A stretch of 50,539 nt of DNA from a virus. Taxonomy: Duplodnaviria > Caudoviricetes. The notes under the pieces were generated by a model. It ran no database searches. It had not been told where the DNA came from and saw only the letters and a list, made by a program, of their open reading frames with translations. The translations under genes were made by a program, and so were the position numbers. Below are positions 9,879-37,592 of this stretch, piece by piece (the first letter of the stretch is position 1; every line of letters begins with the position of its first letter). The stretch is from the IMG/VR virus record IMGVR_UViG_3300016644_000039, positions 1-50,539 of that record, one strand, 5' to 3'.

Positions 9879-9884
9879 TCGAAC

Positions 9885-9910
9885 GAGGGGGCTTAGGCCC
9901 CCTCTTCGTT
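9885..9910 (+). terminator. intrinsic terminator after the capsid gene
   Basis: GAGGGGGC-ttag-GCCCCCTC followed by TTCGTT. Confidence 0.7.
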
Positions 9911-9945
9911 AGCTACTGGCGCACACAGTGTTAGTAGGTTAGAAT

Positions 9946-9971
9946 GGCCCGGCCCACGCCGGGTTTTCTTT
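9946..9971 (+). terminator. second hairpin with T-tract
   Basis: GCCCGGC-ccac-GCCGGGT followed by TTTCTTT. Confidence 0.55.
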
Positions 9972-9981
9972 AGGTGATGCC

Positions 9982-10614: not shown

Positions 10615-10615
10615 A

Positions 10616-11317: not shown

Positions 11318-11325
11318 GGTAGCCC

Positions 11326-11658
11326 ATGGCCGAGAAGATCAAGCTCGTTCAAGGCGACACGAAGCCCGCGCTGGTGTGCAACATCACTGATGAGACCACG
11401 GGCGCTGCGATCAACCTGACGGGCGCAACCGTGCGCCTGAAGTTTCGCGCTGCGGGCGCTACCTCGCTGACCGCCACTGTGACGGGCTCCGTGACCAACG
11501 GCGCCAATGGCCAGGTGGCGTTCTACCCTGCCTCGGCCCCGGAGATGCTGCAAGGCGAGCCCGGAGACTACGAAGGCGAGATCGAGATCACGTTCGCCGA
11601 CAACACCATCCAGACGGTCTATGACCTTCTGAAGTTCAAGGTGCGCGAGGACTTCTGA
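11326..11658 (+). CDS. BppU-like Ig-fold virion protein
   Basis: QGDT...INLTGATV...GDYEGEIEITF pattern. Confidence 0.6.
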   Translation: MAEKIKLVQGDTKPALVCNITDETTGAAINLTGATVRLKFRAAGATSLTATVTGSVTNGANGQVAFYPASAPEMLQGEPGDYEGEIEITFADNTIQTVYDLLKFKVREDF

Positions 11659-13013
11659 TGGCAATCAAGGTCACGACCCTCAATCCGGTCGCGGGAGTCT
11701 CGAGCTCCCGGCCTCGGGTGAGCGTTGTCGTGACCGAGCCGACGGCTTCGGTATCCGCGGACCTCCTGGCCGCCGCGGCCTCTGCGTCGGTTGCGGGCGT
11801 CAACGTGACGGCCGTCGTGCCGGTGAGTCGCTTGAGCTACATCGCGCTGGCCACAAACGCAAGCCTCGACGCAACAGGTCGCTTCCAGTACGTCACTGAC
11901 TCTGCGCAGGTGGCTGACGCGGTTGCGCTTGCGCCCAGCAAGCTAGCCCAAGACAGCTTCGGCCTGTCAGATGCTGAGAGCTACGCGCTGGCCATGGCCA
12001 AGAGCGACTCGGTGTCGCTCACCGAAGCCTTCGTTGCTGTCTTGGTGTTCCTGCGGGATTTCACCGACGCCGCTCTGCTGTCCGACGCGCAGCAGCTCCA
12101 GATCGCCAAGGCGCTCGCCGACGCGTTCAGCACGGTCGACGTGCAGACGCTCGTGCTGGACAAAGCCATCGCCGACGGCGTGGCAATGAACGACGCCGCG
12201 GACCTCGAGGACGGCATTACGTTCCAGGCCGTGAAGTCGGTGATGAACATGGTGTTCGCAGGCGACGTCGCCGTGATCGACGTTGCACGCCCTGTGGCGG
12301 ACACGCAGGTTGTTGCGGACAGCACATCGCTCGAGCCTCAGCTTGCCAAGGCCGACAGCGTCGGAAGTTCCGACTCTGTTGCGCTGACCCCTTTCAAGGG
12401 GCTGTTTGATTCGCAGCAGCTCGCGGACGCCGCGCAGCTTGCCGTCGACAAAGCGATTGCGGACGCCGTTTTCTTGGTCGAATCGGTCGGCGTCAGCGCC
12501 GACAAGCCCTTGGCCGACCTCGCTCAAGTGGCGGACGCGAGCTCTATTCAGACGTCGATCCCGGAGGCAGATTCGGTTGCCGCGCAGGACAACGAGGCTT
12601 TTGATTTTTTGAAGTCGGCGCAGGACTCGACGACGGCCACCGACGCGGACGTGATCGAAGTTTCGAAAGCGCTGACCGACGCCTTTGCGCTCGCTGATGC
12701 GCCGCGGCTCTCCCACGACCGCCCGCTCGGCGACCAGATTCTCTTCACCGACTCATTGCTGACGTCCGTTGACCGCTTGGTGTTCGACGGCGTGGCGATG
12801 AACGACTCGGCCGAGGCGGCCGACGGTCTGTTGATTCAGACCACGCAATCCATCACCAACATGGCGTTTGCCACTGACGCCGTGGCGCTGTCGCAGTCGC
12901 TCAACGAAGCGGATGCCGCAGCCGTTGCGGATTCGGGGTCGTTGGTGAGCCAGGGCTACTGCGACCTGACCTATTTCGCAGCGGACTACGTCGGGGATGC
13001 CCGCACATTCTGA
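11658..13013 (+). CDS. acidic virion fibre-like protein built from 18-aa repeats
   Basis: About 19 units of D-x5-D-x7-K-like periodicity. Confidence 0.65.
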   Translation: MAIKVTTLNPVAGVSSSRPRVSVVVTEPTASVSADLLAAAASASVAGVNVTAVVPVSRLSYIALATNASLDATGRFQYVTDSAQVADAVALAPSKLAQDSFGLSDAESYALAMAKSDSVSLTEAFVAVLVFLRDFTDAALLSDAQQLQIAKALADAFSTVDVQTLVLDKAIADGVAMNDAADLEDGITFQAVKSVMNMVFAGDVAVIDVARPVADTQVVADSTSLEPQLAKADSVGSSDSVALTPFKGLFDSQQLADAAQLAVDKAIADAVFLVESVGVSADKPLADLAQVADASSIQTSIPEADSVAAQDNEAFDFLKSAQDSTTATDADVIEVSKALTDAFALADAPRLSHDRPLGDQILFTDSLLTSVDRLVFDGVAMNDSAEAADGLLIQTTQSITNMAFATDAVALSQSLNEADAAAVADSGSLVSQGYCDLTYFAADYVGDARTF

Positions 13014-16606: not shown

Positions 16607-16834
16607 GTGGATAACCAACAACTCTTTAACCTCGTAGTCAGCATCGCAGCGTTTCTCGCCGTGTTCGTCTTCAACTGGATCACACGCAAGATTCAAAGGC
16701 TCGAAGACGAGATGAAGCAGCTTCCGCACGACTACGTGCAGAAGGACGACTATCGCTCGGACGTCAAGGAGCTCAAGGACATGCTTCGGCAGCTCTTTGA
16801 CAAACTTGACGCCAAAGCAGACAAGACAGGCTAA
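16607..16834 (+). CDS. putative holin-like protein (one TM helix plus coiled coil)
   Basis: Hydrophobic N-terminus; YVQKDDY..LFDKLD; first gene of the envelope/lysis block. Confidence 0.5.
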   Translation: MDNQQLFNLVVSIAAFLAVFVFNWITRKIQRLEDEMKQLPHDYVQKDDYRSDVKELKDMLRQLFDKLDAKADKTG

Positions 16835-16837
16835 CAA

Positions 16838-17458
16838 GTGAAATGGCTGTTGCTCCTATTGTTCACCGGACCCGTGCTGGCGCAGAACACCGCCACCGTG
16901 GACAACCTGTCGACAAACCAACAGGGCAGCAACATCACCAACAGCTCGAACTCGAACAACACGAGCCAGAGCACGACGTACAACGGGAACGCGCCCGGGA
17001 GCACACCACCTCCGAGCGCGATTGCGCCGAGCTACATGGGCGGCGGCCAGGACTCGTGCCTGATCGGGCTCTCTGGGTCGGTGTCGTCCAGCGTGATCGG
17101 CATCGGCGGAGGAACGTACCGGCGCGACGAGCAGTGCGAGCTGCTCAAGCTCGCCAAGACATTGAACGATTTCGGGCTGAAGGTCGCTGCTGTGGCAACC
17201 CTCTGCCAGGACACCAGAGTCTTTCAAGCGATGGCCATGGCGGGCACTCCCTGTCCGTACCTGGGCGCGATTGGAAAACAAGCCACGATCTTGTGGCAGC
17301 AGTACCCGGAGATGAGGCCCGACTATGAACGCAAACCGCTCAAACCCATTTCGCTCGCCACTGGCGTTCGTGCTGATGATTCAGGCTCTCTGTCTGATCG
17401 TTATCGCCCCAGCAAACGCGCAAAGTCTAACGACAAGCCAGCAGACGGTAGTAAATGA
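16838..17458 (+). CDS. secreted Cys-containing protein of unknown function
   Basis: Sec signal MKWLLLLLFTGPVLA|Q; PPPSAIAP, four Cys, AGTPCP. Confidence 0.75.
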   Translation: MKWLLLLLFTGPVLAQNTATVDNLSTNQQGSNITNSSNSNNTSQSTTYNGNAPGSTPPPSAIAPSYMGGGQDSCLIGLSGSVSSSVIGIGGGTYRRDEQCELLKLAKTLNDFGLKVAAVATLCQDTRVFQAMAMAGTPCPYLGAIGKQATILWQQYPEMRPDYERKPLKPISLATGVRADDSGSLSDRYRPSKRAKSNDKPADGSK

Positions 17459-18149
17459 CCTGAGCGGCGCTTCCAAGACCATCAAGAGCCAGGTCATGTT
17501 GGGCCTGGGTCTGAGCAACGCGCTGTCGGTCTCGGCCAGCAACGGCACCATCGTCGACCCCAATGCCTATTCGCTCGCCATCATCACCGAGCAACAGCGC
17601 CAGGCGTACAACACGTCGCTGAACACCTTCCAGACGACGAGCTTCTACAACGCGCAGCAGTTCTTCAAGGACCAGGCGACGACGGCCATCAACCAGATGC
17701 AGCAGTCGATCAGCTTCCTGGCTTCCAACGCCGTGGAGCTGCAAAAGGCGGCGACCGTTCACCAGATGGTGTCTGGTGTCGGCGACTCGGTGCAGGCCAA
17801 GCAGGTGCAGACCGCCATTGCCGCGAGCGGGCTCAGCTCCGAGATTCGAGCCGACACCGTGGCGAACTACAACTACAGCCTCGCGTCCGTGAACAGCTAC
17901 GCCACCCAGGCGGCGGCGTTCTTTCGCGCGGCGGACAACCAGCAGCTCACCAGCACCGTCGACCTGCTCAAGACCAACTACGGCAAGGACCTGGCCTACG
18001 CCGGGGCGCACTTCGTGTATGGCGACGCCCGGATGCTGGTGGGTTGGGCTGACGGCTTCAGCATCTCCATGGGGCCGGTACTGGACGCGTACCAGCAGTC
18101 CTCGCAGAGCTTCTACCAGGCTAACAACCTGATGTTCGGAGGTCAGTGA
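17325..18149 (+). CDS. secreted helical protein of unknown function
   Basis: Signal peptide ending ANA|Q; Q/A/N-rich; overlaps the upstream gene by 134 nt. Confidence 0.7.
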   Translation: MNANRSNPFRSPLAFVLMIQALCLIVIAPANAQSLTTSQQTVVNDLSGASKTIKSQVMLGLGLSNALSVSASNGTIVDPNAYSLAIITEQQRQAYNTSLNTFQTTSFYNAQQFFKDQATTAINQMQQSISFLASNAVELQKAATVHQMVSGVGDSVQAKQVQTAIAASGLSSEIRADTVANYNYSLASVNSYATQAAAFFRAADNQQLTSTVDLLKTNYGKDLAYAGAHFVYGDARMLVGWADGFSISMGPVLDAYQQSSQSFYQANNLMFGGQ

Positions 18150-18697
18150 TGGCGGACGAGAACAAGCCCACCGACAAGGTCGACCTGGCGTCGACCGAAC
18201 TCAAGATCGGCGGAGTCAACCTCAAGGGCAGCTACATCGTCTGGTTCATCGCGTGCGTGAGCGCCGTGGGCGGCGGCATCTACGCGGCGGGCGGCGAGTG
18301 GGGCAAGTACCAGAAGCTGCAAGAGGCGGTCTCGAGCTGGAAGGCGCCCGACATGGAGCCGGTCGTCAAGGTGACCGAGAAGGCGGCCAACCTCGAGGAA
18401 GAGATCGTCAACATGTCCAAGGCGGTGGCTGAGCTACAGAACCTCGGCAGCAAGCTGACAGTCGATCTCAACGCCGTGCAACGCCTCATGGAAGCCAACG
18501 ATGTGAGCAAGCTGCAAGGCGCCATCTCTCAGTTGCGCACCGCCGTCGAGGGCGTGCAGGTGTTTACCCGCGACGTGCAGGCCCTGCGTGAGCAGATGGT
18601 CGGCGTTCAGAAAGACATGGCCACCCTGAAGAAAGACGTGGACGCCCAGTGGAACGCCATCGACTCGATTGGCGCCGGGGCGCTGAAAGGCAAGTGA
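18149..18697 (+). CDS. membrane-anchored coiled-coil protein
   Basis: GGAGG SD; TM segment YIVWFIACVSAVGGGIYAAG followed by long heptad repeats. Confidence 0.75.
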   Translation: MADENKPTDKVDLASTELKIGGVNLKGSYIVWFIACVSAVGGGIYAAGGEWGKYQKLQEAVSSWKAPDMEPVVKVTEKAANLEEEIVNMSKAVAELQNLGSKLTVDLNAVQRLMEANDVSKLQGAISQLRTAVEGVQVFTRDVQALREQMVGVQKDMATLKKDVDAQWNAIDSIGAGALKGK

Positions 18698-18915
18698 TGA
18701 AGTACCTGCTCCTAATCACTCTGGGTCTGCTGGCGGGCTGTAGCGACCACTACCGCTACCCATGTCAGAACCCGGACAACTTCGCAAAGCCGGAGTGCCA
18801 GAAGCCCAAATGCCTGTTCACGCAGATGTGCCCGGAATACCTCGTAGCCCCGATCCTGGAGAAGCAGATCAATGGAAACCAACAACCAGCCTCAGAAGCA
18901 GCCCCTAACCGCTGA
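18697..18915 (+). CDS. small Cys-rich lipoprotein (72 aa)
   Basis: MKYLLLITLGLLAG|C lipobox; four further Cys; TGATG coupling. Confidence 0.8.
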   Translation: MKYLLLITLGLLAGCSDHYRYPCQNPDNFAKPECQKPKCLFTQMCPEYLVAPILEKQINGNQQPASEAAPNR

Positions 18916-19363
18916 CGACATCGAAGTCCGAATCTGGGGGTTCGTGGTCGTCGTGGTCACCCTGATCCTGTGCTTCATCGTCGTGTCCCTGCTGTACTCG
19001 GTGACGTTCGTCACCCAGCCGATCAAGTCGATGGCGCCCATCGACCAGGCCTACACGAAGATGCTCAACGACATCGTGCTGCTGATCGTGGGTGGCATTG
19101 GTGGCGTGATGTCCAAGCGGGCGACGGCAGCCGTGGCCAAGGCCATTGCCCCGGAGCCTCCCAAGCCCGCTGCACCGGGAGCTGAACCCCCAAAGCCCCC
19201 GGCCCATCCGGTAATGCCTGACTGGAACTGGATGGGCTATCAGAACCCGGACCTCGACGAGAGCTGGGTGCCGCCGCCTCCGCCGACGACCCCGGCCGAT
19301 CACCTGGACCCCTCGCGTGAGGAGATCGCCATGGAGCGCGCCCTTGCAAGGACCGAGTCATGA
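18872..19363 (+). CDS. two-TM membrane protein with Pro-rich tail
   Basis: Two hydrophobic segments; Pro-rich C-terminus. Confidence 0.75.
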   Translation: METNNQPQKQPLTADDIEVRIWGFVVVVVTLILCFIVVSLLYSVTFVTQPIKSMAPIDQAYTKMLNDIVLLIVGGIGGVMSKRATAAVAKAIAPEPPKPAAPGAEPPKPPAHPVMPDWNWMGYQNPDLDESWVPPPPPTTPADHLDPSREEIAMERALARTES

Positions 19364-19827
19364 ACAAGTACCTGATTGCTGGCGTCGTCGCGGTGCTCAC
19401 CGTGTTTGGCATCTACCGCTACGGCTTCCACAAGGGCTGGGGCGAGCGCGACGCCGAGATGCAGGCCGTCATCGCTCAGAAGAACGAGGAGGCCCGCCAG
19501 ACCGAGCAGAAGATGCTCGAGCTCACCAACACCACCGCAACACAACTGAAGGAGGCCAACGATGCCCTCGACCAAAAGTCTTCTGCTCTTGACCGTGCTA
19601 TCCGCGCTGGCCGGGTGCGCCTCCCCGCCCCGAGTTGCGTACAAACCTCCGCAGGTACCCCCGCTCCCGCCGGAGATAGCGCAGAAGCGCCCAGCGAATC
19701 TGAGCGACAGACTCTTGCAGCTATTGCAGCCATCGTCGCCGACGGCGACCGGGCCATCAACCAGCTCAACGCCTGCATCGACGCCTACAACCAAGTGAGG
19801 GAGCAGCTTAATGGCAGTAACCACTGA
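19360..19827 (+). CDS. i-spanin (Rz-like)
   Basis: N-terminal TM, coiled coil, GRVRL, QLNACIDAY. Confidence 0.85.
   Translation: MNKYLIAGVVAVLTVFGIYRYGFHKGWGERDAEMQAVIAQKNEEARQTEQKMLELTNTTATQLKEANDALDQKSSALDRAIRAGRVRLPAPSCVQTSAGTPAPAGDSAEAPSESERQTLAAIAAIVADGDRAINQLNACIDAYNQVREQLNGSNH
19562..19798 (+). CDS. o-spanin (Rz1-like) embedded in the +1 frame
   Basis: AAGGAGG SD; LAG|C lipobox; Pro-rich; fully nested in Rz. Confidence 0.8.
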   Translation: MPSTKSLLLLTVLSALAGCASPPRVAYKPPQVPPLPPEIAQKRPANLSDRLLQLLQPSSPTATGPSTSSTPASTPTTK

Positions 19828-20410
19828 ACAGCTCAAGGAGCTGCACATCGACCCCCAGTGGGTGGACGCCCTGAACGCGACGTTCGAGCGCTTCTACATC
19901 AACAGCAAGGTGCAGCAGGCGGCCTTCATCGGCCAGTGCGGGCATGAGTGCGGCAACTTCAAGGTGCTCGAGGAGAACCTGAACTACCGCGCCGAGACGC
20001 TGATGCGCCTGTGGCCCAAGCGTTTCCCGACGCTGGATGTTGCCAACCAGTACGCCCGCAACCCCAAGAAAATCGCCAACATGGTCTACGCCAACCGCAT
20101 GGGCAACCGTGACGAGGCGTCCGGCGACGGCTACCGGTTCCGGGGTCGAGGCTGCATCCAGCTAACCGGGCACTCGAACTACTTCCATGCCGGCAAGGCG
20201 TTGGGCGTTGACTTCGTGAAAGAGCCCGACCTGGTGGCGACACCGATGTACGCCGCGCTCACCGCCGGCTGGTTCTGGTCCACCCACGACTGCAACCGCC
20301 TGGCCGAAGTTCAGGACTGGAAGGGCCTGACCAAGAAAATCAACGGAGGCCACATTGGTCTGGATGACCGGATCAAGCATACGCAGCACGCGTTGGCCGT
20401 TCTGGGCTAA
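19811..20410 (+). CDS. endolysin, glycoside hydrolase family 19
   Basis: AFIGQCGHEC, EENLNY, RGRGCIQLTG..NY, INGG motifs. Confidence 0.92.
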   Translation: MAVTTEQLKELHIDPQWVDALNATFERFYINSKVQQAAFIGQCGHECGNFKVLEENLNYRAETLMRLWPKRFPTLDVANQYARNPKKIANMVYANRMGNRDEASGDGYRFRGRGCIQLTGHSNYFHAGKALGVDFVKEPDLVATPMYAALTAGWFWSTHDCNRLAEVQDWKGLTKKINGGHIGLDDRIKHTQHALAVLG

Positions 20411-20448
20411 GGCACTACAATCCAGTTAGTTGCTAGGCAAGGACGATC

Positions 20449-22095
20449 ATGGCTGTCATTACCATCCCGAAGTTCTCTGGCGTCGCGCCACGGGTATCGC
20501 CTAACAAGCTGTCGCCTGAAATGGCCCAGACGGCGAACAACGTGCGCCTGCTCGCGGGGACTTTGGCTGCGTGGAAGCAGCCGCTGACCGTGGTCTCCGG
20601 GCTGACCGCCAGCGACCCGTCGACCATCTACCGATTTGGCCAGGACCTCACCTCCGACACGCAGTACTGGTTTCACTGGGCGACCGACGTCGACGTGGTC
20701 AAGGGCGCCATTGCCGGCGACCAGACCGAGCGCACGTTCTTCACGCACCCCACGTTGGGCGCGCGGCAGACAAACAATTCGTTGGCGCTGACTGGTGGTA
20801 CGGGCAGCTACCCTTGGAACTCGGTGCCTTTGGGCGTTCCGGCGCCCACGAGCGCTCCGGCTTGCGCGGTTGCAACCAACGGCGACCCAAACGAACCAAC
20901 CGAGACCCGCGTCTACTGCTTCACCTATGTGACTTCGCTGGGGGAAGAAGGCCCTCCAAGCCCGACCAGCGCTGCGCTGAACCTCAAGCCAACAGGCGCA
21001 ACGGTTACTCTGACCGGGCTGGGCACTACGGCTCCGGCCGGGTACAGCGGGTACATTACCGCCAAGCGCGTCTACCGCACGCTGTCAGGCAACCTGACAA
21101 CGGAGTTTCAGCTTGTCGATGAGATTCCGATTGCGCAGGCTACATACTCGGACACCATCGCCAGCAGCCAGCTCGACGAGGTAATCCCGACCGCCACATG
21201 GCAGCCGCCTCCGTCGGGGGTGTTCGGCATCACGCAGATGGCCAACGGGATCATGCTGCTCTTCAAGGAGTACGACATCTACCCGTCTGAGGCCTACGTG
21301 CCTTACGCCTATCCGGTGGACTACCAGCTCTCAGTCGACTATCCCATCGTGGGCGGCAAGGCCGTGGGTTCGTCGGCGGTGATCGTGACGACCGGGCACC
21401 CGTACCTGCTCACCGGCTCGGACCCCTCGGCGCTGTCGCTTGTCAAACTCGACAACCCGCAGGCGTGCGTCTCCAAGCGATCATTGGCTCCCGCTGAAGG
21501 CGGAGTGATCTACGCATCCCCCGACGGCTTGATCTTCGTGTCCACCGCCGGCCAGGTGTCGAATCTGACTGCGCAGCTCTTTTCCCGCGACGAGTGGCAG
21601 ACCCTTGTGCCGTCGTCCATCGACGGCTACTTCCACGACGGGCGCTACTACGGCTTCTACAACAACGGCACGACTCAAGGCGGTTTCGTGTTCGACCCAA
21701 CGCAGGGCACAGGTGCCTTCACGTTCATCGACACCTACGCGACTGCCGGCTACTCGGACCTGCTCCAGGACGCGCTGTACCTGAAGGTCGGTACGAACAT
21801 CGTGAAGTGGGGCGCCGGCAGCACCAGTCAGACCTACACCTGGAAGTCTGCGGTGTTCGAGCTCACGACGCCCTCTAACCCAGGCTGCGCCCAGGTGGTG
21901 GCTCGCTCGTACCCAGCAACGTTCAAGCTCTACGCCGACGGCGTGCTCAAGCACACGCAGACGGTGGCCAACAGCAATCCGTTCTGGCTGCCGGCCGGCT
22001 ACCGCGCTCGATTCCTCGAAGTCGAGATCACAGGCACCGCTGAAGTGCTGGCCGTGCACGTCGCCTCTAGTCCGCAGGAGCTCAAGGGAACATGA
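20449..22095 (+). CDS. tail tubular/nozzle (stabilisation) protein
   Basis: Beta-rich 548 aa; GEEGPPSP; YASPDGL; YTWKS. Confidence 0.7.
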   Translation: MAVITIPKFSGVAPRVSPNKLSPEMAQTANNVRLLAGTLAAWKQPLTVVSGLTASDPSTIYRFGQDLTSDTQYWFHWATDVDVVKGAIAGDQTERTFFTHPTLGARQTNNSLALTGGTGSYPWNSVPLGVPAPTSAPACAVATNGDPNEPTETRVYCFTYVTSLGEEGPPSPTSAALNLKPTGATVTLTGLGTTAPAGYSGYITAKRVYRTLSGNLTTEFQLVDEIPIAQATYSDTIASSQLDEVIPTATWQPPPSGVFGITQMANGIMLLFKEYDIYPSEAYVPYAYPVDYQLSVDYPIVGGKAVGSSAVIVTTGHPYLLTGSDPSALSLVKLDNPQACVSKRSLAPAEGGVIYASPDGLIFVSTAGQVSNLTAQLFSRDEWQTLVPSSIDGYFHDGRYYGFYNNGTTQGGFVFDPTQGTGAFTFIDTYATAGYSDLLQDALYLKVGTNIVKWGAGSTSQTYTWKSAVFELTTPSNPGCAQVVARSYPATFKLYADGVLKHTQTVANSNPFWLPAGYRARFLEVEITGTAEVLAVHVASSPQELKGT

Positions 22096-27801: not shown

Positions 27802-29283
27802 ATGGCATCCGCATTCGCATCCGGCTTCAAGATGGGCGGGGACATGTTCGACTCCGCCGAACGCAACCGCATGCTCAAAGAGCGTCTCGAGATCGAGAAA
27901 GCTCAGGAAGCACGCAACGCTGAAGAGCAGGGCCTGCGCATCGCAGGCCTTCGCCGCGTCGACACGGCAACTCAGGACCTGGATCGCATTGCGCGAGTGG
28001 GCATCCAGAACCCCGACGCCATCAAGGCCAATGACGCGGACTTCGACATGGCGGTCGAGGCGACCGGCCGTGGGCTGCCCATGCCCGCTGCTGCGCCTCA
28101 GCAACCCGAGTGGCGCAAGGCCACGGGGCTTGAGCTCAATGATGCGCAGGCTCGCCTGGCCGCAGCCAAGGGCGACATTGCTGGCATGGAAGCCCTGCGC
28201 CTGGGTCGCAAGGGCATCGAGTTCGAAGAAGGCTACAAGAAGCACTTCGAAGACTGGAACAAGATGGACGACGCCGCCAAGGGGGCGCTCATCGACAAGC
28301 TCAGTCTGGACTCCGGCGTGCGCGGCTTCGGTTCCTGGGTGCCCGGCAAGGGCAAACAGGCCGGCTACATGAACTACTTGCCACCCGGCGGCGACCCGAT
28401 CCGGCTGTCCGCCAAGGAGGCCGGCGACCTGTACGTGCTGTCGAACCTCATGCAGGTGGACCCGATTCGTGCTCGCGCCGAGATGGACAAGGTCTCCGAC
28501 AAGGTCCGCGCTGTGGCCGCTCAAGCGTTCGACGCCGAGACCAAAGGTGTTACGGCCAACAACCAGGCCACGCGTTTCGCCAACGCCGATGACATTGCCC
28601 GCCAAGAGCTGGGCATCAAGGCTTCGGCCGCCAGCGCCCAACGCGACTACTACGGCGCCCTGCGCGACCGCGCTCAGCGTCCGCAAGCTGGCGACCTGCG
28701 CGAGTTCGTCAACGACAAAGGCGAAGTGACCATGGTGGACATCACCGGCCTGCCTCGTGGCAAGGACGGCACGATCCCACTGCCGGCAGGCCTCAAGCCT
28801 CGCACCGCCAAACCTTCGGTCACGCCGGAGGCCTATTTCCAGGCGCTCGAGCGCGCCAACAACGTGTACGGCGACCCGGCTCGTGCGCGCATGGCCGTGG
28901 ACCAGATGTTTGGTCTGACCGCACCCACCGCTCAAGTCGCAGAAACCCTCAAGGCGCTGAACGACAAGAAGGGCGGCAAGGCCGTAGCACCGACTCAGGC
29001 GCCCGCACAGACTCCGACCTTGGGGCTACCCCAACGCTTGAGTGGCGCCGTGGCTACCGACAACACCGCAGGCAACCGCAATCAGTTCCTTACCCTGGCG
29101 GCCGAGGCCGAGCGCAATGCGCCTGCTTACGCTCAGCAGATCAGCGTGCTGCGCAGCGCACTGGACCGCACCCGCACTCCGGGTGAGCGGGCCAACCTCG
29201 AGAACCGCATCGGCGAACTCGAGCAGGACCTGATGCTGTACACGAGCATCCTCGAGCAGCGGGGTGCCCAACGGGGGTACTAA
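27802..29283 (+). CDS. ejection/internal virion protein (gp20-like position)
   Basis: Helical; N-terminal FASGF; synteny. Confidence 0.55.
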   Translation: MASAFASGFKMGGDMFDSAERNRMLKERLEIEKAQEARNAEEQGLRIAGLRRVDTATQDLDRIARVGIQNPDAIKANDADFDMAVEATGRGLPMPAAAPQQPEWRKATGLELNDAQARLAAAKGDIAGMEALRLGRKGIEFEEGYKKHFEDWNKMDDAAKGALIDKLSLDSGVRGFGSWVPGKGKQAGYMNYLPPGGDPIRLSAKEAGDLYVLSNLMQVDPIRARAEMDKVSDKVRAVAAQAFDAETKGVTANNQATRFANADDIARQELGIKASAASAQRDYYGALRDRAQRPQAGDLREFVNDKGEVTMVDITGLPRGKDGTIPLPAGLKPRTAKPSVTPEAYFQALERANNVYGDPARARMAVDQMFGLTAPTAQVAETLKALNDKKGGKAVAPTQAPAQTPTLGLPQRLSGAVATDNTAGNRNQFLTLAAEAERNAPAYAQQISVLRSALDRTRTPGERANLENRIGELEQDLMLYTSILEQRGAQRGY

Positions 29284-29323
29284 GCCCTACAATCGCTAAC
29301 AGTAAACAGATTGGGCCCGTAAG

Positions 29324-32300
29324 ATGTTGCCAACCATCAAAGAGCTGCGCGCCGCTGCTGGCGGGCTGGAGAACCTAACAGACGAAGAGATCATCTCCGC
29401 CACGTACCCCGCCTACCAGCAGTACTACGGCTCTGTTGATGAGTTCGCAAAGTCGGTCGGCTACGGGGGCGCAGGGCGCGGCATGGCCAGCTCGCGCATC
29501 TCTGCCGGCATCGACAACTACCAAGCAGGCCTGCTGGGCTTGGGCGGCGCCGCCTCCCGTGCTGTCGGGCTCGATGGAGCCGCCCAGTGGTTTGACCAGC
29601 GCCGCGATGCCAACGAGCAGGCGGCGGCCTACGCTACCCAGCGGGCCCGTGACCTGGGCGCGGTCGACGACTGGCGCGAAGTCGATGGTGTCGGCTCCGG
29701 CCTGAACTACCTGGGCGGCCTGGCTGCCCAATCGCTCCCCTACCTGGGCGAAGCTGTCGTGGGCGGTCTTGCCGCTCGAGGCTTAGCCACCGGCGCCCGT
29801 GCTGCCCTGCGCGGGGCTACCACTGCCGAAGAGGCTGCTGCCGCAGGCCGACGCCTGGGGGCTATCCAGACTGGCGGCGCTGTTGCTGCCTCTTACCCCT
29901 CTGCCGTCGGCGACATCCTGGCCAACCAGCGCGAAGCAGGTGGTGAGGACCTGGGCTCCGCCCTGCTGGGCGGCGTGCCCTACGCTGCGCTCAATGCGTT
30001 TGGCGTGGAAGGGCTGGCTGCTCGAGGGCTGCGTCCGTTTGCTGCGGGTGAGGGCCGTCTTGCCCGCATGGCCACAGGGGCTGCATCCACCGCCATCGGT
30101 GAGGGCCTGGGCGAAACCGGGCAGGAGCTGGCCAACCAGTACTTCGGCCACATGGCCGTGGACCCCAACGAGACGCTGTTCAACGATGAAGCCAATCGCC
30201 GCTACCTCGATTCCTTTGTGGGCGGTGCTGCTCTTGGCGGACTGTTTGGTGGCGCTGGCGGTTTCCGACGTCCCCGCACTGTTGATGAGGGCCAGTTTGA
30301 CCTGACGGGCCGGGACCAGCCGCAAGGCGACTCCCTGCAACTGGGATTCAGTCCGCTGGCGGGCACCCCGGTCGTCTTCCCCGACGGCACTGTGGCGCTG
30401 AACGGCGAACAAGAGCTCGAGGCCCGATACGGCGTCGGAAGCCCCGCAGCGACGATCCCCGACATGGGGGAAACCCCTGTTGTTTCCACGCAACAGGAAG
30501 GGAAAACACCTACGACTCCGGGCATTTCGCAGTTCGACGAGGTCGACCAAGGCCTGACGGACATGGGCATCGCCATGGCCAGCGGCAAGAAGACCCGCGA
30601 GAAGCAGCGGGCGTTCTACCAGGACGCCGTAGCCACGGGCATCCCGCTCGACAGCGACCTGCTGACGCCCTACTGGACCGCCGTGTCCCAGAACCGCTTT
30701 GGTGACCGCACCAAGGTGCTGCTCCAGAACGCCATCGTCCAAGCCAAGAAGGAGGCTGCCAATGTCAGCCAGCCAAGCGCACCTGCCGGACAACCTGTTG
30801 GAAGCGGTGATGGACGGAGCGCTGCTCCTGTCGGAAGCATGGGCAATCCAGGATCAGTTCCTACTGGCCAACAGCCAGTGGGTGGAAATGCCGGAAATCC
30901 TCAACCCGCAGGTGGGCAAGTTGCTCCTGTGGCAAACGCCGGGGTTCAACGACCTGCCGCTGTAGCGCCGGTCGGCGAGAACACGTCCATCCTGGCAGGC
31001 GCCAACGAGCCGGCTTCGCCCGCCAATCTCGACTACGTTGAGGACCAGAACGCGCTGGAGATCGCCCGCCTGACCGGGCAGGGCGGCGTTGCTGAGGCGC
31101 TGGAGCAAGACGCGACCGGCCAGCGCGCTGACCGCGAGACTGCGACCGCCGAGGACGCCGAGCGCATCCTGGGCAAGTTCTTCGAGGAGTCGCCCACTGC
31201 CGAGCGCGACCGCCAGATTTTCGATGCGTGGCTCACCGCCACCCGCCCGGCTGGTCGAGGCGTCAAGGGCAAGATTAACGCCGCCATCGGCAAGGACTTC
31301 GATGTCGGCACCAAGCGCGTCGAGCAGATCACCAACACCAAGAAGCTCGTCGAGACTGGCAAGGCACTGGGCTACTCGGAGGAGCAGGTCTACGAGGCTT
31401 TCGGCCTGACCCCGCCCAACACCAAGGCGGTGGACCCCAACGCGGCGGTCAACCCAGAAGTCGCGGCGCTGCGCCGCGCAATCGAAGACTTGGGCGCTCG
31501 CGCCAAGGCCGCCAAGGGTGCTGAAAAGATTGAGCTCGAGGCGCAGCGCAAAGAGCTCCAGGGTGTCCTGTCTGGCATGGCCGAGAGCCGTTCCAACGAG
31601 GAACGTGGCGTGGTTGCCCGCGCCCTGGCCAACGCAGGGTTCACTATCGAAGAAGGTGACACCACCGGCTGGAGCCTGGACGACAACCGTGAGTGGCAGC
31701 GCGAAAGCAGCTCGGGCAACCAGGAAGGCGACGTCCTTCTGCGCTTTGGCAAGCAGATCGACGATCTGCGCTCGGCCATCGAGACGCTTGAGTCCCAAGG
31801 CTTGGGCAGCGCCGCCGCTGAACTGGAAGAACTGTCGACCAAGGTGGCCACCGAGCTGGAAGCTGCCAAGGCTGCGCTGCAAGCCACCAAGGTCCCGGCA
31901 GCGCCCAAGCGCGAAGTCTCCGCTGACCTGGCCGCCGCCAAGCAGAAGTTCAAGGACGTTGGTCGTGACGTGACCAAGATGGAGCCGGAGGAGCTGCGCA
32001 TGCTGCGCGGCGAGGCCGAGCGCTTCAAGAACAAAGAGTTGCTGGCCAAGATCGACGCCCAGTTGGGCGCTGCGCCTGTCGCTCCCGCTGTAGAAGCCGA
32101 GGCTGCACCTACCGCCGAAGCCCAGACCCAAGAACGCGAGCGCTTCCCCTACCCGCCGACTCTGCCTGGCGCCCCGGCCTACGTCGAGCCTGCTCAGCGC
32201 GCGGTCGTGGACTTCATGAACGGGGACCTGACCCGCGAGCAACTGCGCGAGCGCTTCGCCGAGCTGGGGATGACCGTTGCCCAGCAGCGTTCGGTGACCA

Positions 32301-35300
32301 ACCCCATCGAGTGGTTCCCTGCGGACTTCGACGCCGTCAAGGAGCTGATTGACGCCAAGAAGGGGGCCCCCAAACAAGACAGCGGCCAGACGCTGTGGGA
32401 GTCCTTGCGCGCGCAGACTCCTGACCTGGTCACTTACGAGGAGCTGACGGGCAACGAGCGTGGCTACTTGACCGAGCTGGCCGACCGTACCAACGGCAAG
32501 CCGACCATCAAGAACGAGCTGGGCCTGCAAGAGCTGATGGGCCGCACGACCGACGCACCTCCGTTCGTTCGCCAAAGCCGCAGTCGCTACCGCAGCGCCG
32601 ACCAGTTCGGCAACCAGTTCGAGTCGGTGGAGGCGTCCCTCGAGGAGCTGACCGGCCACTACCCGAGTGTGAACGTCGCCATCACGCGCCTGCGTGGCAT
32701 GGGTGTGGGCAACACGCTCGACGCCGTTCAATCCTGGCAGGTCACGCTCGACCCTGTGAGCTGGGATGCGATCTACACCGTCATGGACGGCAAGCCCACC
32801 GTCGTGCTCAGCCACGACGCAATGAAAATTCGTGAGATCGGCATTCTCGCCGTCATGCACGAGGTGGCCCACGCCGCCGACGGGGTGCAGGCAGGCGGCA
32901 AGTTCTCCGCCGACCGCGAGATGAAAGTCCAACTGGTCAACGGCATGCCGATGGCCATGCGTCCTGGCACCGCCATGGACGAAATCCTCACCCACTTCGA
33001 GGACTACGACTCGGGCCTGTCGCAGCTACTCCAGTACCCGCTGGATATGAGCGACCCCGAGAACCGTAAAATGTCCGCACGGGAGCTTCGTGAGGAAGTC
33101 TTCGCCCAGGTCTGGGCGTTCTCGAACACCTTCGGCGGCATGGAGTGGTTGCAGGACAACCTGCCGACCACCGCCGCATTCCTGGAGCGCGTCAATGCAG
33201 AAATCAAGCAAACCGACTACGGCCAGGCGGGTGCCCAACAAGGTGCTCAGCCAGGACAAGTTCAAGATGGGGCCGCTGGCCAAGGAAGCGTTCAGCGCGC
33301 AAGCCGGAGCAAAGCTGTCCCCGCCAGTGCCAAGGAAGAAGTCGGGCTCCTGACGAAGACGCTGCGCACGGCTGCCGGCGCTGCGCTCAACAAGGTCGTC
33401 TTCAGCGAGGACCTCTTCAAGCGGGCCTCCGACATGGGCCTGACTGCGGCCATGGACATGGACCGCATCTACCGCGAACGTGCGGCGCTCACCGGCAACA
33501 TCGAGCGGGAAGTCACCCGCATCGAGAACCTGTACAACCGCATCCCCACGGCGTTCAAGGGCACCGGCCCGCGCAGCGCCAACCAGTTCCTCTACGACTC
33601 GACGCGTGAGGCCAAGTGGGGCTTCGCGCCCAAGTGGCGTGGGCAGGCCGCATCCAAGGTGCAGGTCGACGCCGGGATGGCCCAGCGCTTCAAGGCGCTG
33701 CCCAAGGAAGCCCAGGAGTGGGTGCGCGCCGTGCTGGAGCACGGTGACAAGATGTTGGCTCTCAAGAAGCAGACGCTGATCGAGTCGACTAACTCCGAGT
33801 ACGACGCTCTGATCGCGGACGCCCGCGCACGCGGCGAGACCAACAAGGCCGACCGACTGGAGAACGACAAGCAGGCCAGCCTGCGCCAGTTCCAGCGCCT
33901 GTTTGCCACCAGCGAGTTCAACCCGTACGCCCCGATGCGCCGCTTCGGCGACTTCGTGGTGGTCGCCAAATCCAAGGAGTACATGGCCGCGCAGACGCAG
34001 GCCGAGCGTGCCAAGCTGGAGAAGGACCCCGACCACTACCACGTCTCGTTTGCCGAGAGCCGCGCCTCCGCGCTGGAGCTCGAGCGCCAGCTCACCCAGC
34101 AGGGTGCCTTTGCGTCCGTGACGACCCGGGCCAAGGAGGACGCACGCGGGGACATGTATGGCGGCCTGATGGACGCCTTCAACAAGCTGCGCGGCAACAT
34201 CGAGTCCGAGCTGGGCAACGCCACCGACCCCGAGGAGATTGCCTCGCTGCGCGCCGCGCGCGAGACCGTGGTCGAGTTGTACCTCCAGTCACTGGCCGAG
34301 AACTCCGCCCGCAAGGCCGAGATGCGCCGCCGTGCCGTGGCCGGCGAGATCGACATGCTGCGTTCGTTCAGCACCCAGGGCCGGGCCGACGCCCACTTCC
34401 TGGCCAGCGCCAAGTACAACCCGCAGGCGCAGGACGCTGTTGTAAAAATGCGACAACAGGCCAAGGAGGGAGGCAAGCAGCTCGAGAAGTCGGATGCCTT
34501 CAAGGAAATCCTGGCCCGCCACACGCAGTCCATGAAGTACGAGAACGGTGGCTGGTTTGACGTGGCCAACCGTGCATCTCGCGTGACGTCGCTGTGGATG
34601 CTGGCCACGAGCCCGATGTACTACCTCCAGAACTTGACCCAGCCGTTCGTGCTGTCGCTGCCGTTCATGACAGGCAAGCATGACTACAGCCAGGCGGCTG
34701 GGCAGCTCATGCGCTCGTACTTCCAACTGGGCGCGCTGCTCAAGAGCGCGAAGCTGGGCGAGGGCTTCGACTTCACCAAGGTCTCCACCGACAAGAACGA
34801 ACAGGACATGGTCCTCAAGCTCGTCGACCGGGGTCGTATCGACATCGGCATGGACACCGAGCTTGGCAAGGTGAAGCTCGAGGGCGACAGCACCGCCAGC
34901 AAGCTGACCAACCGCGCCGACCAGTTCCTGCGCTCGCTCTCCCAGAAGGTGGAGGCCATCAACCGCGTGTCCACCGCGCTGGCTGCGTATCGCTTGGAGC
35001 GCAAGGGCGGGGCGTCCCACGAAGCTGCTCTGGAGTACGCCGACCAGGTGATCGCCCAGACCCATGGCGACTACACCCGCATCAACGCTCCGCGTGCGTT
35101 CAACACGCCGGCCGGCAAGGTGGCCTTGCAATTCCGCAAGTTCCAGTTGATCCAGCTCACGCTGCTGACCAAGCTGGTCTACAACACCTTCAAGGGCGCA
35201 TCGCCCGAGGAGCGCGCCGCCGCCCGCAAAATGCTGGCGTTCACTTTGGGTCACACGGGGATGTTGGCCGGTGTCGTGGGCATGCCCGGCTTTGCGGCTG

Positions 35301-36091
35301 CGGCCTTCATCATCAACAAGCTGGCCGACGCCTTCGGCGACGATGACGAGCCGTACAACCTCGAGAACGAGCTCCGCAAGATGCTGGGTGACGGGGACAT
35401 GGCTCGCGCCATCATGCGCGGCGCTCCCACCCTGGCCGGCACCGACTTGTCGGGCAAGCTCGGCATGGGCAACGCCCTGTCCATCCTGCCGTACACGGAC
35501 TTCGAGGCAAGCCGCGAGGGCTTCAACGCCATCGCCACCGGCCTGACGCTGGGCGCCACGGGCGGCCTGGGCGCCAAGGTCTTCGAAGCTCTGGGCAACA
35601 TCAAGGACGGCGACTACTACCGTGGCCTGATGGGCTTGTCCCCGTCGCTGCTGGCTGGCGGCATCAAGGCTTTCGTGGAAGCCAACCGTGGCGAGACCAA
35701 CCGCAAGGGCGACGTGCTGGTGAGCGCAGACGAGATCAGCAACTGGGAGAGCTTCGCCAAGCTGATCGGCTGGCCGACCAGTGCCCAGAGCGAGCGCCGC
35801 TTCGACCGTCAGGTGGCCTACGACAACAAGGAGGCCTTCGAGAACAAGGCGTCCAAGCTCAAGAACGAGTACTCCCGCGCCGTGCGTGAGAACGATGCTG
35901 ATGGGCGCCGCGCCGCCATCGAGAAGTGGCAGCGCCTCCAGACAAGCCGCCGCGAAGCAGGCTTCCAGGCCCAGCCGCTGTCAGCTCTGATGAAGGCCCC
36001 GCAGGAGCAGGCCAAGCGCGAGCGCAACACCTCGGGCGGCGTGCAGTTCGACAAGCGCAACCGCCAGTTCGTGATGGAACAGACCCAGTAA
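29324..36091 (+). CDS. giant ejection / large polyvalent protein (HTH-like segment, HExxH metallopeptidase, PLxRFG domain)
   Basis: G/A-rich hydrophobic N-terminus; HEVAH at 32858-32872; PMRRFG at 33932-33949; ALQFRKF C-terminal region. Confidence 0.8.
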   Translation: MLPTIKELRAAAGGLENLTDEEIISATYPAYQQYYGSVDEFAKSVGYGGAGRGMASSRISAGIDNYQAGLLGLGGAASRAVGLDGAAQWFDQRRDANEQAAAYATQRARDLGAVDDWREVDGVGSGLNYLGGLAAQSLPYLGEAVVGGLAARGLATGARAALRGATTAEEAAAAGRRLGAIQTGGAVAASYPSAVGDILANQREAGGEDLGSALLGGVPYAALNAFGVEGLAARGLRPFAAGEGRLARMATGAASTAIGEGLGETGQELANQYFGHMAVDPNETLFNDEANRRYLDSFVGGAALGGLFGGAGGFRRPRTVDEGQFDLTGRDQPQGDSLQLGFSPLAGTPVVFPDGTVALNGEQELEARYGVGSPAATIPDMGETPVVSTQQEGKTPTTPGISQFDEVDQGLTDMGIAMASGKKTREKQRAFYQDAVATGIPLDSDLLTPYWTAVSQNRFGDRTKVLLQNAIVQAKKEAANVSQPSAPAGQPVGSGDGRSAAPVGSMGNPGSVPTGQQPVGGNAGNPQPAGGQVAPVANAGVQRPAAVAPVGENTSILAGANEPASPANLDYVEDQNALEIARLTGQGGVAEALEQDATGQRADRETATAEDAERILGKFFEESPTAERDRQIFDAWLTATRPAGRGVKGKINAAIGKDFDVGTKRVEQITNTKKLVETGKALGYSEEQVYEAFGLTPPNTKAVDPNAAVNPEVAALRRAIEDLGARAKAAKGAEKIELEAQRKELQGVLSGMAESRSNEERGVVARALANAGFTIEEGDTTGWSLDDNREWQRESSSGNQEGDVLLRFGKQIDDLRSAIETLESQGLGSAAAELEELSTKVATELEAAKAALQATKVPAAPKREVSADLAAAKQKFKDVGRDVTKMEPEELRMLRGEAERFKNKELLAKIDAQLGAAPVAPAVEAEAAPTAEAQTQERERFPYPPTLPGAPAYVEPAQRAVVDFMNGDLTREQLRERFAELGMTVAQQRSVTNPIEWFPADFDAVKELIDAKKGAPKQDSGQTLWESLRAQTPDLVTYEELTGNERGYLTELADRTNGKPTIKNELGLQELMGRTTDAPPFVRQSRSRYRSADQFGNQFESVEASLEELTGHYPSVNVAITRLRGMGVGNTLDAVQSWQVTLDPVSWDAIYTVMDGKPTVVLSHDAMKIREIGILAVMHEVAHAADGVQAGGKFSADREMKVQLVNGMPMAMRPGTAMDEILTHFEDYDSGLSQLLQYPLDMSDPENRKMSARELREEVFAQVWAFSNTFGGMEWLQDNLPTTAAFLERVNAEIKQTDYGQAGAQQGAQPGQVQDGAAGQGSVQRASRSKAVPASAKEEVGLLTKTLRTAAGAALNKVVFSEDLFKRASDMGLTAAMDMDRIYRERAALTGNIEREVTRIENLYNRIPTAFKGTGPRSANQFLYDSTREAKWGFAPKWRGQAASKVQVDAGMAQRFKALPKEAQEWVRAVLEHGDKMLALKKQTLIESTNSEYDALIADARARGETNKADRLENDKQASLRQFQRLFATSEFNPYAPMRRFGDFVVVAKSKEYMAAQTQAERAKLEKDPDHYHVSFAESRASALELERQLTQQGAFASVTTRAKEDARGDMYGGLMDAFNKLRGNIESELGNATDPEEIASLRAARETVVELYLQSLAENSARKAEMRRRAVAGEIDMLRSFSTQGRADAHFLASAKYNPQAQDAVVKMRQQAKEGGKQLEKSDAFKEILARHTQSMKYENGGWFDVANRASRVTSLWMLATSPMYYLQNLTQPFVLSLPFMTGKHDYSQAAGQLMRSYFQLGALLKSAKLGEGFDFTKVSTDKNEQDMVLKLVDRGRIDIGMDTELGKVKLEGDSTASKLTNRADQFLRSLSQKVEAINRVSTALAAYRLERKGGASHEAALEYADQVIAQTHGDYTRINAPRAFNTPAGKVALQFRKFQLIQLTLLTKLVYNTFKGASPEERAAARKMLAFTLGHTGMLAGVVGMPGFAAAAFIINKLADAFGDDDEPYNLENELRKMLGDGDMARAIMRGAPTLAGTDLSGKLGMGNALSILPYTDFEASREGFNAIATGLTLGATGGLGAKVFEALGNIKDGDYYRGLMGLSPSLLAGGIKAFVEANRGETNRKGDVLVSADEISNWESFAKLIGWPTSAQSERRFDRQVAYDNKEAFENKASKLKNEYSRAVRENDADGRRAAIEKWQRLQTSRREAGFQAQPLSALMKAPQEQAKRERNTSGGVQFDKRNRQFVMEQTQ
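30762..30965 (+). CDS. nested +1-frame small protein (67 aa) inside the polyvalent gene
   Basis: AAGGAGG at 30749-30755, 6 nt before ATG; codon bias shifts to this frame. Confidence 0.65.
   Translation: MSASQAHLPDNLLEAVMDGALLLSEAWAIQDQFLLANSQWVEMPEILNPQVGKLLLWQTPGFNDLPL
33195..33353 (+). CDS. second nested +1-frame small basic protein (52 aa)
   Basis: GGAG 7 nt before ATG; GC3 bias shifts to +1 across the linker. Confidence 0.45.
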   Translation: MQKSSKPTTARRVPNKVLSQDKFKMGPLAKEAFSAQAGAKLSPPVPRKKSGS

Positions 36092-36101
36092 GGAGAAGAC
36101 G

Positions 36102-36386
36102 ATGCCGAGCAAAGACCCCCGACTGGCACGCGCAGGCGTGTCGGGCTACAACAAGCCCAAGGCCACCCCGAACCACCCGACCAAGAGCCACGTCGTCGTG
36201 GCCAAGTCGGGCGACCAGGTCAAGACCATCCGCTTCGGCCAGCAGGGTGTGCAGGGCAGCCCCAAGAAGGCAGGGGAGTCCGAGGCGTACAAGAACCGGC
36301 GCGAGAGCTTCAAGGCTCGCCACGCCGACAACATCGCCAAGGGGAAGATGAGCGCCGCGTACTGGGCCGACAAGGTCAAATGGTGA
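36102..36386 (+). CDS. small basic hypothetical protein
   Basis: AAGGAG SD; HPTKSHVVVAK..IRFGQQG..SFKARH..AYWA. Confidence 0.8.
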   Translation: MPSKDPRLARAGVSGYNKPKATPNHPTKSHVVVAKSGDQVKTIRFGQQGVQGSPKKAGESEAYKNRRESFKARHADNIAKGKMSAAYWADKVKW

Positions 36387-36394
36387 CCTGAGCC

Positions 36395-36580
36395 TGGTAC
36401 AAATTTGGTACACCACGGGGGCTAAAACCCGCTATCGGTGTACCAGAGGGGTCATCGTAAGTCGTTGAATTTGCAAGCCAATTCAACGCAGTGTTGTAAA
36501 AATGGTGCTGATGAGAGGAGCCTAGGATTCCAGTATCCATGAGGGTTTGCTGGCAGCTTGGTACACCTATGGTGCACTAT
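36395..36580. other. attP: tRNA 3'-end core with arm-type repeats and an IHF-like site
   Basis: Reverse complement of 36503-36520 is CTCCTCTCATCAGCACCA; TGGTACA(CC) repeats on both sides. Confidence 0.75.
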
Positions 36581-36587
36581 TGCTTTC

Positions 36588-37592
36588 ATGCCTACCTATC
36601 AAACGCGCAATGGACGGGTCCGCGCCATCGTCCGGGTCAAGGGCTTCGAGGCCGCCTCTGACACCTTCCCCACCAAGACCAGAGCCAAGGCTTGGGCGCT
36701 CAAGACCGAGGCTGAGATGCGCGACGGCACCTACGTCGCCCCGACCAAGCAGACGTTCAAGGCGGTGGTCGAGCGCTACCTCAAGGAAGAGAAGTGCGAC
36801 CGTTGGACGACCAACCGACTCAAGGCGCTGCTGCGCGACGAGAGGTGGGTGGAGCTTCCGCTCTCCGAAGTCCACGACCCGGTGGCTCATTGGGTGGAGA
36901 AGCGCCGCAAGGAGGTCAAGCCCAACACCGTCCGGCGTGAGGCGACCATCATCTCGAGCGTGTTCACGCACGCCATCAAGCGCTGGCGGATCAAGCTCAG
37001 GGCCAACCCCATGCGTGACGTGGAGCTGCCGGCCAAGGACAAGGCTCGCAACCGCAGGGTCCGCGCCACCGAGATCGCTGCGCTGTGGACCCACTTCGGC
37101 ACCAAGGTGAAGACGACACGCTCGTACGTGCCGTGGATGTTCGAGTTCGCCTGCGAGACCGGCATGCGCCTGGGCGAGCTGACTGAAATCGAGTGGAGTG
37201 GGGTGAACCTGGAGGAGCGCTGGGTCTACGTGCCGCCGTCCAAGAACGGTGATGACCGCCATGCGCTGCTCACTGACCGGGCGGTGGAGCTGCTCAAGCT
37301 GCTGCCGCGACCGAACGACCGGGTGTTCCCGGTCAACAAGGGGTCAGTGGGGACGGAGTTCAGGGATGCCACGAAGGCGCTGGGCTTTGCTGACCTCCAC
37401 TTCCATGACAGCCGGCACGAGGCCTGTACGAGGTTGGCCAAGTTCCTGACCGTCATGGAGTTGGCCCGAGTGATCGGGCACAGGGACCTCAAGAGCCTGA
37501 TGGTGTACTACAACCCGACTCCGGCTGAGCTCGCTGCGAAGCTGCCCGGTGCTGTTCAATCCACTGCTCCACATCCTTCACCGACCACATGA
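36588..37592 (+). CDS. int: tyrosine integrase
   Basis: TGMRLGE, SKNG, HDSRH, GHRD..Y catalytic motifs; probable start MPTYQ. Confidence 0.93.
   Translation: MPTYQTRNGRVRAIVRVKGFEAASDTFPTKTRAKAWALKTEAEMRDGTYVAPTKQTFKAVVERYLKEEKCDRWTTNRLKALLRDERWVELPLSEVHDPVAHWVEKRRKEVKPNTVRREATIISSVFTHAIKRWRIKLRANPMRDVELPAKDKARNRRVRATEIAALWTHFGTKVKTTRSYVPWMFEFACETGMRLGELTEIEWSGVNLEERWVYVPPSKNGDDRHALLTDRAVELLKLLPRPNDRVFPVNKGSVGTEFRDATKALGFADLHFHDSRHEACTRLAKFLTVMELARVIGHRDLKSLMVYYNPTPAELAAKLPGAVQSTAPHPSPTT

Follow-up and report, generated by a model that had tools for sequence, protein, structure and literature searches.

A 67-residue protein is very probably encoded within the gene for a giant virion protein, in its +1 frame, by a real and deeply conserved gene of an unnamed family. 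Host and nested gene lie on a virus record of 50,539 bases (the window, by which we mean the whole stretch of DNA that was analysed), together with genes for terminase, portal, capsid, tail, lysis, integrase and DNA polymerase. Three properties mark the nested frame as an embedded overlapping gene: it is contained in another coding sequence on the same strand and in another frame, it has conserved initiation signals of its own, and purifying selection acts on its own frame. Judged by these sequence features, it is in all likelihood translated.

The giant gene and its nested reading frame

The features under discussion, in window coordinates, are:

19562..19798, + strand: Rz1 embedded in Rz at frame offset +1, the internal control (PHROG Rz-like spanin, E 1e-5)
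29324..36091, + strand: giant host gene, 2255 aa, DarB-like/polyvalent-type (PHROG 10089 at E 2e-60 over aa 1469-2244; tblastn matches to DarB-like/PLxRFG proteins)
29474..30283, + strand: Gly/Ala-rich conserved N-terminal region of the giant, from alignments; a bait for collecting homologues that is independent of the nested gene
30518..30757, + strand: domain of the giant of about 80 aa, from alignment, just upstream of the nested gene; swapped among homologues, its last residues, KKEA, encoding the Shine-Dalgarno sequence
30749..30755, + strand: Shine-Dalgarno sequence (SD) AAGGAGG, 6 nt before the nested ATG; anti-SD duplex -11.7 kcal/mol
30762..30965, + strand: nested gene, 67 aa, +1 frame of the giant; ATG at 30762, TAG ending at 30965; net charge -7
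31025..31408, + strand: HTH-like region of the giant, downstream of the nested gene (alignment, model, weak sigma-4/HTH fold rows)
32858..32872, + strand: HEVAH (HExxH) metallopeptidase motif of the giant
33195..33353, + strand: second nested ORF, 52 aa, basic; +1 frame, GGAG 7 nt before its ATG, 112 codons after the HExxH motif

The C-terminal third of the giant matches DarB-like/PLxRFG giants of cultured podoviruses. Such relatives, and a position among virion genes, make it likely that the giant is a virion ejection protein, packaged and ejected; JC1 virions are reported to contain a DarB-like giant (PMC9144972). Polyvalent features are the HEVAH motif in the giant and the presence of portal and terminase in the window. 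Pfam found no domain in the window's giant, LPD23, LPD39 and ART-PolyVal domains being confined to homologues. For the HTH-like segment of the window, Foldseek gave no match at E ≤ 0.001, its top rows being sigma region 4/HTH, and two homologues match Sigma70_r4 at E 0.01-0.02, so that the HTH assignment in the window is weakly supported. At five homologous loci (L005, L050, L046, L028 and L049) the giant seems split or shortened, the ORF with the N-terminal region ending at 700-1500 codons (in L005 the pieces are 9815-12853 and 16624-20781).

A preliminary description of this DNA had reported a perfect AAGGAGG, a gap of 6 nt, and an ATG opening a 67-codon +1 ORF inside the giant, all of which we recover on re-reading the sequence. 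It had also reported that the third-position G/C bias moves to the +1 frame, and two measures agree on this. Over the nested bases, GC at the three codon positions is 0.81/0.67/0.34 when read in the main frame and 0.67/0.34/0.82 when read in +1, the values for the whole giant being 0.68/0.47/0.82. With a codon model built from 19 other window genes, the log-likelihood difference (+1 minus main) over the nested ORF is +50; 20,000 synonymous recodings of the linker gave a mean of -55 (sd 10.5) and a maximum of -14. In these recodings, which keep the main-frame protein fixed, the +1 frame was open in 75%, the SD present in 67% and the ATG in 5%, and all four features (open frame, SD, ATG and stop) coincided in 0.08%. 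An open frame and an SD are thus unremarkable alone, because KKE readily spells AAGGAGG.

The codon model flips from main to +1 at only two places in the giant, the nested ORF and about 33195-33353. Rz1, put forward earlier as a control with the same signature, behaves in the same direction (+1 frame, AAGGAGG, a fall of Rz-frame GC3 from 0.90 to 0.63) with a weaker signal. In three Gly/Ala/Leu-rich N-terminal stretches of the giant (29740-30290) main-frame GC3 falls to about 0.57 without a frame flip. The HTH-like segment starts about 237 nt past the nested stop, close to the 230 nt first estimated. No sigma-70-like promoter was found in 29000-36600, and a five-pair hairpin around the nested ATG was discarded, as it is not kept in L001.

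Conservation and selection

Homologous loci were gathered mainly by the giant's N-terminal region and not by the nested ORF. The 88 loci matched comprised 59 distinct ones; one truncated duplicate and five genes of fewer than 600 codons were left out and L013 was added via its C-terminal region, giving 54 giants including the window's. The tree used is a quick tree, and the N-terminal row of L013 is unreliable. The nested family is found in 24 of the 54 distinct giants, in each case intact, nested, on the same strand and in the +1 frame, at 66-76 aa; eight of these carriers served to train the profile and several are closely related, so the number of independent cases is below 24.

A start codon stands at the aligned position, within the 10-codon stretch searched, in 24/24 carriers (16 ATG, 7 GTG, 1 TTG). 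An SD duplex of -5 kcal/mol or lower accompanies it in 20/24, against 16% of 3346 control +1 start codons, with a spacing of 5-9 nt in most. Residue 2 of the nested protein is S, A or G in 22/24, the start region folds less than the gene median in 23/24, four loci have an in-frame stop 2-5 codons upstream of the nested start, and all three types of stop codon occur. Neither +1-frame stops nor loss of the SD and start, named at the outset as signs against the gene, is the pattern in these 24 homologues. The slot lies mostly early, 15-30% along full-length giant genes.

The other 30 giants are without the family. In 20 of them the slot is taken by an unrelated nested family; the remaining 10 contain neither, and two of these are complete genomes with no member of the 67-aa family anywhere. 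SD-led +1 ORFs occupy the slot in L039 (62 aa) and L005 (47 aa), with no significant family match (E 0.67 and 6.8).

The frame-specific GC3 and substitution check that had been suggested for homologues favours the nested frame. On one shared DNA alignment of eight loci, conservation is higher in the nested than in the main frame for 28/28 pairs. In the closest pair, the window and L003, 11 changes are silent only in the nested frame and 1 only in the main frame (p=0.0013); over the N-terminal region the same pair differs at 17/6/97 sites in codon positions 1/2/3, as an ordinary gene would. Among the 23 public-contig variants listed, with the variable loop 30866-30880 left out, 16 leave only the nested protein unchanged, 1 leaves only the main-frame protein unchanged and 6 alter both, and the stop codon changes from TAG to TAA. 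Phages BA3 and vB_ValP_FGH, described below, are neutral in the site test (11 vs 13), with residue identities of 45/63 in the nested frame and 37/63 in the main frame, and the test loses direction in the most distant pairs. Nested codons 35-40 (30864-30880) form a hypervariable stretch of constant length when near-identical strains are compared; they map to the loop that joins helices 2 and 3. The G/P/A/Q linker of the giant would be mostly a by-product of the nested gene read out of frame.

Reach and structure of the family

Protein searches returned 25 and 44 matches, nearly all of 64-72 aa, on contigs that are mostly 0.5-3 kb where shown, which suggests that gene callers pick it up only on fragments where the giant is broken off; P0036 and P0063, matching in multiple stretches, were not counted as members. 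Of 83 members, 79 carry a negative net charge, and L8, L12, E25, W27, D31, L34 and P44 are at least 90% conserved among the 83. The nested protein is modelled as three helices (10-17, 23-35 and 45-58; mean pLDDT 75) with no strand of three or more residues. Neither Pfam nor PHROGs has a family for the nested ORF, nor a consistent one for the 83 members, and Foldseek against the PDB gave no match at E ≤ 0.001, with a best Z of 4.0 in VIA-align. Leads from the ESM Atlas were not borne out: PAS identity was rejected (three helices and no sheet, 0/83 members matching a PAS family at E ≤ 0.1, about 130/256 shared features), and TraJ and YodL were dropped for low shared-feature counts.

The one clear fold match is BFVD A8HNW3, of 110 aa (TM 0.76, rmsd 1.0 Å over 57 columns), which is probably BA3_0004, its accession range pointing to phage BA3 and its length being equal. 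Thalassomonas phage BA3 has a 110-aa CDS, BA3_0004 (ABV74289.1), in the +1 frame inside the 2631-aa BA3_0002; its GenBank annotation goes no further than 'hypothetical protein' and begins at an ATG lying upstream, the SD-led start giving 63-64 aa. The BA3 copy matches a family profile built without it at E 2e-9, and profiles without it also match vB_ValP_FGH and VvAW1, where the copies are unannotated. Each of the three phages has an SD, an ATG and an open +1 frame of 61-64 aa in an LPD38-type giant, so that the hosts of the family comprise LPD38-type giants and the window's DarB-like type. In their N-terminal regions, the giants of BA3 and VvAW1 bear only a faint resemblance to that of the window (hhalign probability 12.6 and 4.8). 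P0053, a distant member from the protein search, is nested in +1 right after an inorganic pyrophosphatase (InPase) domain.

All 29 copies with DNA context (the 24, L016, L096, BA3, vB_ValP_FGH and VvAW1) are nested in +1, and no free-standing copy was found among them. Nothing was found by an initial metagenome scan, a scan with the upstream domain or a scan with P0048, and no plasmid match was found for the BA3 copy. Matches by tblastn in Xanthomonas phage Kintu (a minor tail gene) and Stenotrophomonas phage Moby were taken as chance. Many distant members, including the BA3, vB_ValP_FGH and VvAW1 region loci, end in H or Q (LH, RH, VQ), close ones in LPL; a C-terminal His can be a Lon signal.

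Other nested reading frames in the giants

Candidate nested ORFs across the 54 giants number 81 in +1 and 2 in +2, a raw count in which +1 is intrinsically favoured, and they form six families of four or more. The second nested ORF of the window, absent from the preliminary description, has the same codon signature as the 67-aa gene. Its family occurs in 6/54 giants, all with GGAG 7 nt before the ATG, and a different family occupies the same place in nine others; these families lie 109-115 codons after the HExxH motif in 15/15, and 30 giants have such a motif. For the second ORF the selection test, made on one pair, shows no clear preference (5 vs 4). Should some nested genes be tied to a particular domain, the HExxH-linked families are better candidates than the 67-aa family.

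The unrelated family in the slot of the 67-aa gene, of about 80 aa and also in +1, is seen in L006 (11712-11972) and 19 other giants of one clade. No giant has both slot families, and the confinement of the unrelated one to a single clade of 20 points to one replacement event. A basic +1 family of about 50 aa that begins MPFKS is nested in 26/54 giants, L006 (13011-13172) and 25 others; it has short matches (E about 6e-4) to free-standing genes of Streptomyces phages, FlowerPower gp48 among them, and to an unannotated intergenic ORF of P-RSP2. In L006 (11972/11973) and L011 (11789/11790) two nested +1 ORFs stand back to back, the stop being followed at once by an ATG, an arrangement that resembles a small operon inside the giant. 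A further 75-aa +1 ORF with a positive codon signal lies inside the VvAW1 giant (L093, about 9604-9830). GenBank has a second +1 CDS, BA3_0003, inside the BA3 giant (L090, 5036-5380), whose sequence looks unlike that of a real protein.

Function of the nested protein

We propose a model where the nested gene, by independent initiation on a late mRNA shared with the giant, would yield a small acidic protein, predicted to form three helices, that assists assembly of the giant ejection protein. The protein would be a non-essential assembly helper, such as a chaperone or loading factor, and not an inhibitor of a neighbour. We give this guess at its role a probability of roughly 0.4. It is prompted by the constant nesting across giant classes, by the acidic, helical nature of a protein with conserved hydrophobic residues, and by precedent in P1. 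The small gene may once have been free-standing and become engulfed by read-through as the giant grew. Where GC3 is high, the reading on the host side seldom runs into a stop. Since the slot is held by an unrelated family in 20 giants and empty of both families in 10, the role would have to be replaceable or dispensable. Several findings count against it: the absence of the family from 30/54 giants, two complete genomes included; weak tracking of the N-terminal region (Spearman 0.32); the faint N-terminal resemblance of the BA3 and VvAW1 giants to the window's; the neutral site test for BA3 and vB_ValP_FGH; and the loss of direction of that test in the most distant pairs. Constant nesting, too, may reflect only entrapment of the gene in the giant. 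It is tempting, if on balance doubtful, to go further and view giant ejection genes as compact operons whose disordered linkers are small conserved genes read out of frame, with this family as an ancient, dedicated chaperone or loading factor housed inside its client, common to unrelated giant classes and replaced non-homologously in one clade.

Nearly as likely is that the nested gene is a passenger. It would then encode a real late phage protein that acts on something other than the giant, be it a host protein, a defence system or a different protein of the phage, and would have been engulfed and kept because the giant tolerates a floppy linker. Its independence of both neighbours fits this account, as does its cassette-like behaviour: public contigs match the ORF and then diverge at its 3' end (runs X2, X7 and X9) and 5' end (X2 and X9). 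At least six nested +1 families occur in the giants, and one of them, the MPFKS family, has free-standing relatives. Against it stand the lack of any free-standing copy among the 29 with context and the persistence of the gene in giants of different classes, mostly in the same early slot. Between the two, an assembly helper is our best guess.

The preliminary description had gone beyond a hidden gene, and its two parts fared differently. The gene stands, conserved in frame; its proposed role, that of a cognate inhibitor or antitoxin by which the producing cell or lysogen would keep the adjacent HTH-like (or upstream) domain silent, is unlikely in view of the neighbours. A chaperone, also suggested there in looser terms, may still be right. 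The nested proteins of the window and L001 are 93% identical and precede unrelated downstream regions (similarity 0.04), and nested proteins in the 76% identity range likewise precede unrelated ones. The 24 copies fall into four groups and five singletons by upstream neighbour, and into four groups and three singletons by downstream neighbour. Over the 21 loci long enough, pairs have a median similarity of 0.33 in the nested protein, against 0.07 in the upstream and 0.05 in the downstream region. The nested genes of BA3 and vB_ValP_FGH, alike in 45/63 residues, are followed by different downstream sequences, the nested gene of L096 follows an InPase domain, and the neighbours in these two phages, VvAW1 and L096 differ again from those of the other copies. 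In L009, a complete phage, the two flanking domains of the window type are both present (E 2.5e-16 and 1.5e-19) with a Pro/Ala linker between them, and no member of the nested family occurs anywhere, in a search that recovered the three cultured-phage controls. The gene is thus neither in fixed pairing with one adjacent domain, nor is the would-be effector always accompanied by its immunity gene, although L009 may have an unrelated substitute. In favour of an inhibitor, the nested protein is small, acidic and helical, most downstream regions in the phage group hold by eye an HTH-like stretch, so that a partner recognized at the level of fold is conceivable, and of three weak correlations with nested-protein similarity (Spearman 0.32 for the N-terminal region, 0.32 upstream, 0.46 downstream, the pairs not being independent) the downstream one is highest. 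When the nested protein was predicted as a four-chain complex together with the HTH, upstream and N-terminal regions, the score was 0.00, the partner folds being uncertain.

Two other accounts of the ORF are very improbable. The ORF could be a relic: a gene that was real in the past, became fused out of frame and has ceased to be expressed, its codon bias a fossil; genes remodelled out of frame reportedly occur in E. coli, and the neutral BA3/vB_ValP_FGH site test would agree. Against a relic speak the selection visible among near-identical strains (16 vs 1; 11 vs 1), a stop codon that swaps TAG for TAA and the lack of an internal stop in any copy found. Least credible is a programmed +1 frameshift, in which slippage at the SD-like site would yield a shortened giant with a 67-aa tail: internal SD sequences can stimulate frameshifts, as in prfB, and the +1 frame is open for 33 codons upstream of the nested ATG in the window, but the start codon is kept in 24/24 copies while swapping among ATG, GTG and TTG, SD spacing and residue 2 are largely conserved, and four loci have the upstream in-frame stop.

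Comparison with known systems

Embedded genes are known from phage lysis cassettes; what appears to be new is embedding inside giant polyvalent/DarB-like virion genes. Our searches of a mostly open-access literature found no report of nested genes in such giants, a passing mention in the BA3 genome paper being possible. A single unnamed family, without a counterpart in Pfam, PHROGs or the PDB, is shared by uncultured phages and three cultured marine ones. It follows that annotation overlooks several genes in each giant, that some linkers should be read anew, and that a mutation or deletion made in such a giant may strike a second gene. The nested gene is a concrete candidate for a factor that may keep giants soluble and load them into capsids.

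The giant resembles the polyvalent proteins of Iyer et al. 2017 (PMC5512222) in its HExxH motif and shuffled domains, and in the LPD23, LPD39 and ART-PolyVal domains of its homologues. In the main text of that paper the word 'overlap' is absent, 'nested' is used only for a hairpin, and nested genes are not described. The model for a helper role comes from P1, where the accessory genes for Ulx and DdrB are linked to the giant injected protein DarB; Ulx, an ORF adjoining darB, helps DarB to localize and itself occurs in the head (PMC9024508), a point to set beside the preliminary suggestion that the nested protein would not be injected. Unlike the nested gene, those are separate genes, and the resemblance is by analogy only; no sequence link emerged from a PHROG search with 83 members at E ≤ 0.1, which gave no named match. 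BA3_0004 is of the same family and likewise in +1 inside a giant, and differs in being annotated as 110 aa from an upstream ATG.

The closest likeness in layout is to lambda Rz/Rz1, where a small gene lies entirely within another of the same strand, reads in +1, carries its own SD and escapes gene callers (PMC6139136). The nested protein is not an o-spanin: unlike Rz1, its 67 residues have no Cys and no lipoprotein signal, and its host gene is not Rz, the i-spanin. No partnership with the host product is known. Also unlike Rz/Rz1, the host is a virion protein of 2-3.6 kaa, selection favours the nested over the host frame, and several unrelated nested families are common to one host gene.
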